Source: Octopus vulgaris (taxonomy: Eukaryota). From it: DNA of 64,000 nucleotides. The first letter of the stretch is position 1. The number at the start of each line of letters is the position of its first letter. Below the pieces are notes generated by a model that searched no databases, had not been told where the DNA came from, and saw only the letters and a list, made by a program, of their open reading frames with translations. Of this stretch, positions 7,800-21,284 are shown piece by piece. Where the stretch lies: assembly GCA_951406725.2 (NCBI GenBank), contig OX597828.1, positions 57,846,001 to 57,910,000 on the forward strand, written 5' to 3'. Position numbers and translations under genes: made by a program.

Positions 7800-10770
7800 C
7801 AATGCAAACATCAAACTTCACTTACCTCGACATTCCTATTAAATGTACGTGGCATCAACCCATCAATTATTGCCCAAAAATGGAAGATCCCATATATAGA
7901 GAGTTGGCTTGCCGAAACGGCACATTGCTTCCCTTTCTTTATCCTTACCGAGACTCACCTGAACAACACCCATATGGACGCCGAGGTGAAAATAAAAGAT
8001 TTCACCATTGTTCGTGCGGATCACACAAACCGAAATAAAGGAGGGACAGCCATCTTTATCCATGACTCCTTCTCACTTGATGCCAGGAACATATTTTCCA
8101 ATGGTTACTGTGAATCGGTATCACTATTTAGCAAGGCCAAGGACATAACCATTGTTGGTCTTTACAGGCCTCCCCAAGCACCTCTAAAGTGCTTTGAAGA
8201 GTGCCTTAGCAAAGTCAAGTCCTTCCTTTCGGAAGTACCACTCCGGAAACATACTAGTGATGGGTGATTTTAACCTCCCTCGTGTGAACTGGCCCACAAA
8301 TACTCTGAAGTTAGGCAAATGCTCTACATCAGATAGAGCAACAGCAGAACTGCTCTTTAATCTGATGGATGAATACTTCCTGACTCAGCTAGTATTCGAA
8401 CCAACAAGACAGAATAAAACGATCTTGGATCTGGTATTGACTAATCACTCTAGCTTCGTTCACAGTATTTCAGTTGAAAAAAAATCTCCTCTCAGACAAC
8501 GACATGGTACTCTGCAATTTTAATTCCCGACATATAAAAACCAAACCAGCCAATCCCACTCCATGGCACTCATTTGACAACATAAACTTCCACAAAGCGG
8601 ACTGGGGAGCAATCAGAAAGGATCTGTCTTTCATCGACTGGTCCTTTACTCTCAATTCCACCCATATTGAGACCGCATGGCAGCACTTTGAAAATATTGT
8701 CACCTATACATGCTCTAAACACGCTCCCACGAAATCTACTAAAACAAACAGAAACCGGCTCCCTAAAAAGAAAAAAACACTCATCAAGCGCATCAAAAGA
8801 CTCAACAAAAAAAATCAACCAATTAAAATATTCCCACACACAACATCCACATTCAACAACAATGAAACGGCTAGAGCTGGAAAAACTTCATCTGCTGACC
8901 GACATGAAAACCTCCATTGAAAATCAAAGAGCTGTGGAGAATCAAAAACAGTGGGTAATCAAAAACATCAGACAGAACCCAAAAGTGTTCTATTCTTATG
9001 CAAATAAGCATAGAACCACTGTCTCACCCATTGGGCCATTGATTGATGATAACGGCATTCCCCAACACGATGCTAAAGAAATGGCAGAAATACTGCAGAA
9101 ACAATACTGCTCTGTCTTTAGTGTTCCCACTGATATTGACGTTAGAGAAGCGAACGAAGTTGACTCCCAACATAAAATCTCAGACATAACCTTCACTGCC
9201 ACTGACATCGTAGCAGCAATAAATGAGGTCAAATACTACTCTGCTGTAGGCCCTGATAGATTCCCCGCTAGTCTTCTGAAGGAATGTAGACACCAACTTG
9301 CAGTCCCTCTGACCAACCTCTGGAGAAATTCGTTAGATGCAGGTTATATACCGAAACAGTTTCTATCCCAGTCGGTCATCCCGGTTTTCAAACAGGGAAA
9401 CAGATCCCTCGCAGTCAACTATCGCCGAATCTCACTCACCTCCCACATCATTAAAGTGTTTGAAAGAGTGTTAAGATCAAGGATAGCTGACTTCCTAGAG
9501 ACCCAATAACTCCTAAATGCAAATCAGCATGGCTTTCGCTGTGGCAGGGACTGTCTAACACAGCTCTTACACCACATTGAAGATGTACTCAAAGCCTTGG
9601 GAACAAGTTCGAACTCTGATGTCATATATCTTGACTTCAGTAAAGCGTTCGACAGGGTAGACCATAATATCCTACTCTCAAAATTGGCAAATGTTGGAAT
9701 CCGTGGAAAAGTTCTACACTGGATTAAGTATTTCCTGGCGAATAGAACACAACATCTTGTAATTGATGGAGTCCACTCAAGGCCAGCAAAAGTCACCAGC
9801 GGTATCCCCCAGGGGACTGTCTTGGGTCCGCTGCTCTTCATAATTTACATAAACGACCTTTCTAGTGTCGTACATTACTCCAAAGTGAAAATATTTGCTG
9901 ATGACACTAAGCTCCAGCAAATCGTCAATGAAGAAGCAGACCGAACTCAACTTCAGTCTGATCTATATGCTGTGAGTCAATGGGCAGACAGAAACAAAAT
10001 GCAACTGAACGAGGGAAAATTTGAGCTGGTGCATTTTGGAAGAAATTCCTCACTAAAACAGCCATACTCTCTTCCTTCAGGGGAACCGCTCACAGCCTCT
10101 AACAATATCAGAGACCTGGGTGTAATTGTTGATTACGATCTCAGTTGGAGTGTACACATCAACAAGAAGGTCGATATAGCTCGTAGGATGAGTTCCTGGA
10201 TCTTAAGAACTTTCCGGTCCAGAGAACAAGGTGTCATCATACCACTTTTCTCCTCCTTTGTACGGCCATACCTCGAATACTGCTGCCCACTGTGGTCTCC
10301 CCATACAAGACAAAACATTTCGAGGATTGAGTCACCCCAGAGGGCACTCACTAAACGAATTGAAGGCATGGCTGCTCTCGATTATTGGGATCGCCTTAAA
10401 GCCTTGAAACTCTACTCTCTCCAGCGTCGCCGTGAGCGGTACATCATTTGTACGATGTGGAAAATATACCGCCAACTTTGCCCAAACGACCTGAACATTA
10501 GCTTCAAGGTTCATCCAAGACTGGTTCATACGTCCCCTGTCCAATTCCAGATCACAGCATACATGTACACTGCAACATAATTTCTTTTCCTCAACAGGTC
10601 CTGCCCTATTTAACATTGTCCCGAAAGAAATCAAAGAGGAAAAGGATCCCATCAACTTTAAACGGAGTCTGGATAGATTCCTTCAAAGAATACCAGATAA
10701 GCCACCCATAATTGGATAACACTCACCCAACAAAAACTCACTACTTGAATGGACCATAAACAAAACTTGA
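7800..10770 (+). pseudogene. LINE ORF2 (APE endonuclease plus reverse transcriptase), disrupted
   Basis: ORF pieces 7776-8267, 8194-8523, 8474-8920, 8667-9509 and 9597-10580, with NVRG, LTETHL, YRPP, GDFN, LDLV, QHGF and FADD motifs. Frameshifts near 8235, 8480, 8810 and 10530; stop at 9507. Confidence 0.92.
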
Positions 10771-19395: not shown

Positions 19396-20436
19396 GTAAG
19401 CGATTTTCATCATGAAATGTTTTTAATTGTTTGAATTTTATAATACTGAGATTGATTTGGTTCTTTGTAGTCTAATCTCTATGATTTAATCTTGCTTACT
19501 TCTAAATGTAATTGTATCAGGATATTATTAAACACCAAAAACGTTTCAAACACAAATATTAAATATTTGCAACGCGCATGTTTTGTGTGGTTAATTGTGT
19601 GAATGTGCCTCAAACAAATATCTCCTTGTGGCATTTATTTAAATACTTGTTGAATAAACTCTGGCCTCGCCCGTCAATTGTAATAGCTGACTTTTCACAC
19701 AGCAGATAACCTCTGAATAACAGGAAAATAGTTTTCATGTATGCTTGAATGCATATATAGAAGATCATTAGATTTTATCTTCCAAAATCTTCCAAATTTC
19801 TCACCAATAGAGAAAGGTCTGTTTTCCAGCCTTGAAGCGGTTTCTTTCGTTCAAATTTACATAACAACTAGATGGTGAAGAAAACATGTATGGATGTGCA
19901 TATGTTTGTATGTATCTGGACATGGATGTAAGTATATAAGATGTTTTATATATATGTGGGTTCTCTATGGTTTGAGCATGGTAGTGTTCAAAAACATATG
20001 CATGCATGCTTGCTTGTGTGCGTTTATACACTTATTATCTGCTTATACACACCGCGTTTGTTTACACTTATCGTATGGATAAATGCACTTACTACAAATT
20101 ACATATCTGAAATTACATATGCTTGCAACTATTATTTCTTAATTAGCCAGTTTCTGATGATTAGGGTAGAAGCAATCAGCTACATATCCAAACGTCGCAA
20201 TAATTCCAAGTCTAAGTCTAAAAATATAATCCAAATTGTATACTTGTAGACTTTTATTTTAGATTGACAAAAGTAAGTTTCATATAATTGCCAACCAAGT
20301 GTGGCATCCTATACTGGACAGTGCTACTGACGTTTATAGAAAGACATCTCTTCCAGCTGGCTAACGACACACATTCTGTGTCTGATTAGTATTTGCAAGG
20401 GGAGGTCATTACTCTCATCTCCAGCCTTACGTGATA

Positions 20437-20483
20437 CACATGGCCTCGAGTTCCTGGGTGGTAACCCGTTCTCAGCTTGTGTT
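20437..20483 (-). ncRNA. Degenerate copy of the type I HHR
   Basis: Reverse complement acacaag-CTGAGAA-c-gggt(tacc)accc-a-GGAA-ctcgag-GC-catgtgt has three core substitutions relative to 20774-20820. Confidence 0.65.
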
Positions 20484-20773
20484 AATCACCAGCTAGTGCT
20501 GAAAACTCACCCCACTCGTAAAAGGCTATATGCTTTTTCCAGCGACGAAACGTCGCTGAACTCGTAAAAGGAGAAATAAGCTATATTAAATCTCTGAGCG
20601 AGATGTATACAGTAGCAATACGGAATCGTAACATATAATTGCCAACCAAGTGTGGCGTCCTATACAGGACAGTGCTACTGTCGTTTAGAGACCCAGGAAG
20701 ACATATCTTCCAGCTGGAAAAAGCATTTAGTATTTTGCGAGTGGGGTGAATTTTCAGCAGTAGCTGGTGATTA

Positions 20774-20820
20774 ACACACGCTGAGGACGGGTACCCACCC
20801 AGAAACTCGAGTCCATGTGT
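20774..20820 (+). ncRNA. Type I hammerhead ribozyme, intact core
   Basis: acacacg-CTGAGGA-c-gggt(accc)accc-a-GAAA-ctcgag-TC-catgtgt. GUC site after 20813, palindromic stem III, stem I extends through gtgat/atcac. Confidence 0.85.
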
Positions 20821-21284
20821 ATCACGTAAGGCTAGTGGTGGGAGCGATGACCTACCCTCTCAAATACTAATCGGACACAGAATGTGTGTAGTTAGCCAGC
20901 TGGAAGGGATGTCTTCCTGGGGCTATAAATTTCAGTAGCACTGTCTTGTATAGGACGCCACACTTAGTTGGCGATTATATGTTACGATTCCGTATTGCAA
21001 CTGTTTACATCTCGCTCAGAGATTTAATGTAGCTAAAAGTAAGTTTCCTCACTAATCTAATATTTACTAAATTTGGAGAGTCATGCTGAAAGGTTACTTT
21101 CCCAGCGTAGCGAATCATTTTAATGAAGGAGATCAAAACAATATATCGATTCTGGACCTTAAGAGATTATCAACATTCATGAGAGAATACTTTCTGAGGG
21201 ATCCTCGTATAATTTGCCGCTTGCATGCAAACGAAGATTTTGCTCTTCAATAATAGTGGGATTTCTCAATGTCGTCGAATGGAT

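Follow-up and report, generated by a model that had tools for sequence, protein, structure and literature searches.

A 357-nt non-coding hammerhead repeat in Octopus vulgaris, likely inserted in trans by a Penelope-like enzyme

Introduction

Metazoan non-LTR retrozymes, as described by Cervera and de la Pena (2020, PMC7229834), consist of a short, non-coding tandem unit of low GC content that carries one type I hammerhead with a palindromic stem III and is bordered by a target duplication of more than 4 bp. Unit sizes given there are 350–390 bp in mussel and 330/350 nt in axolotl. The octopus repeat analyzed here shares each of these properties and has a unit of similar size. It differs from the described retrozymes in its arrays: these are of low unit number and scattered, and most consist of two arms whose ends are fixed. 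RNA and cleavage, demonstrated for the described retrozymes, are predictions from sequence in octopus. The words ‘Octopus’, ‘cephalopod’ and ‘inverted’ do not occur in the main text of that paper.

Penelope-like elements carry an inverted, 5′-truncated copy and a tail of 30–40 bp at one end (PMC8557442, PMC3846280). The enzyme of the anole element cleaves AT-rich DNA on both strands and initiates reverse transcription from two sites inside its RNA, the spacing of which equals the tail; uncut RNA was used in vitro (PMC11167929). Descriptions of Penelope pseudo-LTRs with a tail (Arkhipova 2013, PMC3846280; Craig 2021, PMC8557442; Frangieh 2024, PMC11167929) contain the same head-to-head 5′-truncated copy, the tail at one end, two starts downstream of the hammerhead, AT-rich targets and a duplication near 10 bp that we find in octopus. 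Compared with these pseudo-LTRs, the octopus unit is without an ORF, its tail is about 45–55 nt rather than 30–40, and no sequence link to a coding element was found. In vitro, the enzyme from anole used its start sites without regard to strand (PMC11167929), whereas the octopus genomic copies use one of each.

Both the Penelope link and the circular template have already been proposed in print. For Penelope elements, Cervera and de la Pena (2014, PMC4209133) tentatively suggested hammerhead cleavage, ligation and reverse transcription of the circle over more than a unit length. We make the same proposal, and the private variants shared within octopus insertions are sequence evidence that bears on it. 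For vertebrate retrozymes, Li, Clavereau and Pollet (2026, bioRxiv 10.64898/2026.07.22.740005) likewise propose dependence on Penelope machinery, arguing from co-occurrence and phylogeny and calling the mechanism unresolved; ‘tail’, ‘Octopus’ and ‘mollusc’ are absent from the main text. Our literature search, which covered the main texts of papers that were largely open-access, returned no cephalopod retrozyme, and the main text of an octopus repeat annotation (PMC13282606) contains neither ‘retrozyme’ nor ‘ribozyme’.

Results

The window, by which we mean the whole 64-kb stretch of O. vulgaris DNA under analysis, contains a non-coding insertion of 753 bases (20282–21034) between two perfect 13-mers (Table 1). 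The 13-mer, AAAAGTAAGTTTC, is present exactly twice in the window, and two matches were obtained in 0 of 100 shuffles, in agreement with the perfect target-site duplication claimed in the initial annotation of this DNA; base 20281 is compatible with both the duplication and the repeat unit. Positions within the unit are counted in hammerhead sense, starting at the predicted cut. The insertion is composed of two arms, 86–91% alike and inverted head-to-head, with the hammerhead-sense 3′ ends pointing outward and the 5′ ends meeting centrally; each arm passes through one cut site on its way from its 5′ to its 3′ end. The annotation was correct in placing neither end at the cleavage site and in its head-to-tail period of 351 (20281 and 20632), which in the window copy corresponds to the usual 357-nt monomer minus 6 nt. 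It had further placed the flip in orientation at a palindromic microhomology. The 12-nt palindrome exists, yet the arms overlap by 5 nt only, and we rejected the palindrome as the junction microhomology.

Table 1 Features of the insertion in the window
Feature	Position	Strand	Basis
Left target-site duplication copy, 13 bp	20269..20281	+	exact match
Left arm, 1.2 units, 3′ end 168 (short-end class), 5′ end 83, 6-nt deletion	20282..20717	-	
Decayed hammerhead, G8/A13/U16.1 changed, predicted inactive	about 20436..20482, bounds approximate	-	sequence
Inversion-junction overlap GCTGG, 5 nt, within palindrome 20708-20719	20713..20717	.	
Right arm, 0.9 unit, 5′ end 257, 3′ end 221 (long-end, ‘tail’ class)	20713..21034	+	
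Type I hammerhead, all core bases, one stem I mismatch	20774..20820	+	sequence
Right target-site duplication copy, 13 bp	21035..21047	+	exact match

Contigs from a DNA sequencing run span both insertion junctions with 3 and 4 differences, bridging the right junction by 63 bases and the left by only 29, just below the bridging standard. No ORF of 120 codons lies over the element, no tRNA was found, and the insertion has no poly(A) or simple-repeat tail. The copy differs from the majority sequence of subfamily A (see below) at 39 of 686 sites. It is an aged, dead copy of a many-copy hammerhead repeat, useful because it is located in unique DNA and displays a 13-nt stagger. Elsewhere in the window and unrelated to the insertion, LINE-type reverse transcriptase frames occupy 8586–10580 on the plus strand (Pfam RVT_1 in 9510–10577).

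Unit searches of the genome (2.8 Gb, 227 contigs) gave 2149 and 1320 candidates, of which 40 of each were scored; these figures are not copy numbers. The repeats fall into four subfamilies. Subfamily A has a 357-nt unit with a GC content of 0.449 and was studied at 52 distinct loci, 8 of 60 having been dropped as duplicates of the same place. At non-CpG sites its copies differ from the majority by a median of 7.1%, and the subfamily is therefore old; exact matches to its core pattern occur at only 26 places. A relaxed core pattern gave 575 matches, mostly subfamily C among the first 100 listed. Subfamily B (357 nt) is 76–77% identical to A, and subfamily D (360 nt) about 50%. Subfamily C has a 353-nt unit about 72% identical to A, copies only about 1% apart, a hammerhead with a canonical G-C pair at the base of stem II and arrays of up to about 7 units. 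Judged by its sequences (L150, L183–L197, L233–L252; for example G000:C15:31689339-31691931), it is probably still active. Two loci near 21.14 and 22.18 Mb of one contig (G000:C1; L134 and L139) hold the same subfamily C insertion inside a 98% identical inverted segmental duplication; L139 was left out of all counts as the duplicate of L134, and overlapping loci were counted once. Subfamily D (L163–L182) has a compensated U3-A8 hammerhead core, an ACAUGU palindrome and ends at positions 176 and 235. The longest stop-free frames in subfamilies A and B are 44–91 codons (53 and 81 in A). With a type I hammerhead, a tandem unit within 150–450 bp, GC below 50%, no coding capacity and a target duplication longer than 4 bp, the element corresponds at the sequence level to the definition of a metazoan non-LTR retrozyme.

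The right hammerhead of the window copy comprises CUGAGGA (20781–20787), GAAA (20802–20805), a palindrome (20805–20812) and GUC (20811–20813), with the cut predicted after 20813. The mismatch at the second pair of its stem I is C.A. A further C.A at the base of stem II is the majority state of subfamily A, and the loop II difference in this arm is a substitution. One type I hammerhead per unit had been annotated: the type I layout, the GUC site, the palindromic stem III and the bulged extended stem I are confirmed on the plus strand, whereas the left, minus-strand hammerhead has lost G8, A13 and U16.1, leaving a full core in 1 of 2. Among the subfamily A units covering the core, 44 of 68 have it intact. 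A scan of the window region against Rfam yielded no hammerhead match at E ≤ 1, only three chance hits; a young relative scored 32.2 bits against Hammerhead_1, under the 34-bit cut-off. The minimum-energy fold of the window hammerhead reaches a z of only -1.7 and mispairs the core. The base of stem II is C.A in subfamilies A and B and G-C in C, and this C.A may weaken cleavage in subfamily A. Stem III is palindromic in all four subfamilies, with a different palindrome in D, which fits the cleavage by paired hammerheads described in PMC4209133. The CUCGAG stem III recurs in a further set of hammerheads (L156, L199, L200 and L202), the flanks of which are unlike each other and unlike the sampled coding elements.

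Compared with 40 shuffles each, the majority monomers of the four subfamilies fold with z scores of -7.5, -6.2, -5.9 and -7.0, forming a long rod that joins both monomer ends plus a set of hairpins. Compensatory pairs exceed expectation when the C structure is applied to A (10 against 3.0) and the A structure to B (9 against 2.4), tests that are supportive rather than strict because they are pairwise and on related sequences; for the C structure in D, 16 pairs against 12.6 expected are not significant. On these models, the four subfamilies appear to share a common conserved fold.

We mapped the ends of the copies on the unit. Outward 3′ ends of subfamily A fall at positions 162–177 (34 of 78) or 217–227 (26 of 78; 60 of 78 together, 52 loci), roughly 170 and 220 nt downstream of the predicted cut. 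The first search could favor the first end cluster, and we therefore repeated the count for loci selected solely by the hammerhead region. At these, 21 of 31 ends lie inside the two windows, against 7.6% expected from their share of the unit, the windows having been chosen after seeing the data. Two-armed insertions combine the two classes: one end of each occurs at 14 of 27 such loci in subfamily A, with the same class twice in none, and a short and a long end in 32 of 38 in subfamily C, where the other six have a single end outside the clusters and a pair of like ends never occurs. This one-of-each rule supports the annotated priming from both target ends. Single-ended subfamily C insertions have the short end in 22 of 26 cases, part of this set having been picked with a query ending there. 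The same two ends recur in subfamilies B and D, and both start sites are AT-rich. The initial annotation had predicted circularly permuted insertion starts. The inner 5′ ends do vary, being scattered in subfamilies A and C, whereas the outer 3′ ends form two narrow clusters in all four subfamilies, so that permutation of the start points is not borne out. Shared fixed ends had been named in advance as evidence against the annotation; they are nevertheless no refutation of a circle, since what they indicate is the point at which reverse transcription begins.

The insertion targets are for the most part TA repeats, and subfamily C insertions have TA-rich flanks at both ends in 49 of 64 cases and at one or both in 62 of 64. 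A search for target duplications at the 52 subfamily A loci found matches in 14, mostly within TA repeats, compared with 37 of 150 for shuffled flanks, and therefore only a few loci are informative. Clear, non-repetitive duplications are present at only a few of the 52, TA repeats hiding most others.

The template was addressed with subfamily C, 72% identical to A, from which, and not from the window copy, the evidence for a circle is drawn. Here 93 of 107 arms (64 insertions) cross the cleavage site, and 5′ ends within 10 nt of the cut number 6 of 107, with 6 expected by chance. Since arms cross the cut and 5′ ends are not enriched there, we rejected the cleaved linear monomer as the template. 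At 187 crossings of the cut site no indel occurs (0 in 1118 positions against 0.37% overall; about 4 expected), which argues weakly against jumping across a nick. Arms extend up to 2425 nt, about 7 units. The variant analysis excluded arms with less than 88% identity as well as positions close to gaps or to the ends of arms. Among 70 variants observed two or more times, 33 are limited to a single insertion (2000 shuffles gave a mean of 0.49 and a maximum of 4). Of the 99 repeated variants at sites covered at least three times, 83 are present in all units that cover the site, reaching 8 of 8 across the two arms; the remaining 16 occur in only some units. Among the rare repeated variants, 21 of 33 are in every unit, and 134 single-unit variants are unshared. 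Insertion-private variants found in every unit over both arms imply that the arms copy the same or sibling molecules, and that most lineages were reduced to one monomer immediately before they were amplified, the outcome expected of rolling reverse transcription. A literature look-up found no earlier use of this private-variant argument. In the window copy, the arms share four variants, three common in subfamily A and one rare. Together, the cut-site crossings and the shared private variants in subfamily C support the annotated circular or multimeric RNA template, and the insertion reaction probably ran on a circular RNA monomer.

The most serious alternative, which we nevertheless consider unlikely, retains twin priming at two fixed sites and replaces the circle by an uncut linear multimeric transcript of a genomic array, with homogeneity arising from earlier amplification or homogenization at the DNA level. 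One variant of insertion L183 is absent from the same turn of both arms, in register, which points to a multimeric template there, and haplotypes switch midway in L208 and L217, so that a few arrays look as though copied from mixed templates. The anole element, moreover, inserted in vitro without need for hammerhead cleavage (PMC11167929), and cleavage by a single hammerhead is poor when its palindromic stem III has just two pairs (PMC4209133). Against a linear multimer stand the 21 rare variants present in every unit together with the 134 that are unshared, since a new mutation in a single unit of a linear source must pass a monomer bottleneck to reach all daughter units. Arrays would, moreover, become shorter with each round of 5′ truncation, and arms of 7 units nonetheless occur. 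Three sequencing runs of presumed RNA gave short contigs, mostly below 95% identical, and are uninformative on strand, ends, level or circle.

Intact ORFs with reverse transcriptase and GIY-YIG domains occur in the genome, among them 781-aa frames at many places. These belong to a young autonomous Penelope-type family (L091:1745-4087 and 5066, L092–L094), which targets TA repeats and combines the 781-aa frame with an upstream frame of 308–378 codons and, close to the 3′ end, a U3-A8 hammerhead. A second Penelope-type coding family is 46% identical to the first; its example (L095:1321-4483) has 766-bp inverted arms that are 100% identical and a hammerhead core beginning CCGAAGA. The hammerhead of the 781-aa family and subfamily D have the same U3-A8 core and ACAUGU palindrome, a hint, for D only, at a common origin. 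We compared sampled coding-family ends with the units by nucleotide BLAST, nhmmer and local alignment against shuffles. They share no sequence, and the helper is therefore one that we infer. From 6136 endonuclease candidates, 150 were scored and 42 loci examined; at these 42, no unit matched the terminal repeat of an autonomous element. Two unit matches at endonuclease loci were separate sister-subfamily insertions and were rejected as terminal repeats. A coding Penelope ORF attached to the unit as its own terminal repeat, which would have told against the initial annotation, was likewise not found at the loci examined. Four independently picked loci (L020, L041, L126 and L196) have fragments of Penelope protein nearby; these are at inconsistent positions and, at this element density, look by our estimate compatible with chance. 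At L126:886-1735, a Penelope reverse transcriptase fragment directly adjoins a subfamily B arm at its 5′ end, both on the same strand, as the product of either a template switch or nested insertion.

The unit itself has no ORF with reverse transcriptase and GIY-YIG domains, as an autonomous Penelope-like element would. Its inverted 5′-truncated copy, one-sided tail from two fixed starts and AT-rich targets are those of a non-autonomous one, and it appears to work like such an element. The tail and inverted-copy footprint and the TA targets support the annotated Penelope-type enzyme as the likely mover. The same footprint matches ordinary pseudo-LTRs, and the copies could be solo or tandem pseudo-LTRs left by 5′ truncation of an autonomous Penelope-like element outside our sample, which covered 150 scored candidates and 42 loci out of 6136. 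This we regard as improbable: upstream of the hammerhead lies the previous unit, not an ORF, for up to 7 turns; stop-free frames in A and B are short; and the Penelope fragments are near just four independently picked loci, in no consistent position.

L1 twin priming also yields a target duplication, a 5′ inversion and junction microhomology, and it leaves two parts without overlap, with the second primer at variable internal sites. That another LINE mobilized the RNA in this L1-like manner is very improbable, even with a LINE-type reverse transcriptase in the window; the window copy ends in neither poly(A) nor a simple repeat, neither start site varies, and one region has been copied into each of the arms. 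Barely plausible is a DNA-level minisatellite, born from a Penelope end and grown by unequal crossing-over, a model discussed for vertebrate retrozymes (bioRxiv 10.64898/2026.07.22.740005). The octopus copies are dispersed, short insertions at TA targets, with inverted arms whose outer ends are fixed and whose inner ends vary, and their RNA fold is conserved with compensatory changes. Reverse transcription from random points of a circle with freely permuted ends, to which the scattered inner ends and the distance of the ends from the cleavage site might point, is scarcely credible and was rejected on the two fixed 3′ sites of the end maps.

Discussion

We favor, with modest confidence, a reading in which the window holds an aged copy of a non-coding 357-nt hammerhead repeat, likely inserted in trans by a Penelope-like reverse transcriptase/endonuclease, probably on a circular RNA monomer. 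In the proposed sequence of events, (i) a tandem array would be transcribed and its hammerheads, probably paired via the palindromic stem III, would release monomers that are ligated into circles; (ii) a GIY-YIG endonuclease would make a staggered cut in AT-rich DNA, by 13 nt here, exposing two 3′ overhangs; (iii) one overhang would prime near unit position 170 and the other near position 220; (iv) each enzyme would circuit the template for a variable length, past the ligated cut site; and (v) the two cDNA ends would join via 0–6 nt of microhomology, host repair filling in. A more specific form of this scheme is plausible, though short of probable: two reverse transcriptases of one complex would start about 45–55 nt apart on one hammerhead-made circle, one per target strand, and roll round it.

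The window copy itself is an ordinary dead insertion, and the importance lies in the family, which matters because it makes two points testable, the movement of retrozymes via RNA circles and the origin of the tail, tandem and inverted structures of Penelope-like elements. Subfamily C offers a small, defined substrate: its copies are nearly identical, its rule of one end per class is strict, and the genome also contains intact candidate enzymes. If the two-enzyme scheme is true, the tail, tandem copies and inverted arm of Penelope-like elements would all follow from one mechanism, and this young subfamily, with its 353-nt unit, would serve as a minimal natural substrate on which to prove the circle mechanism.
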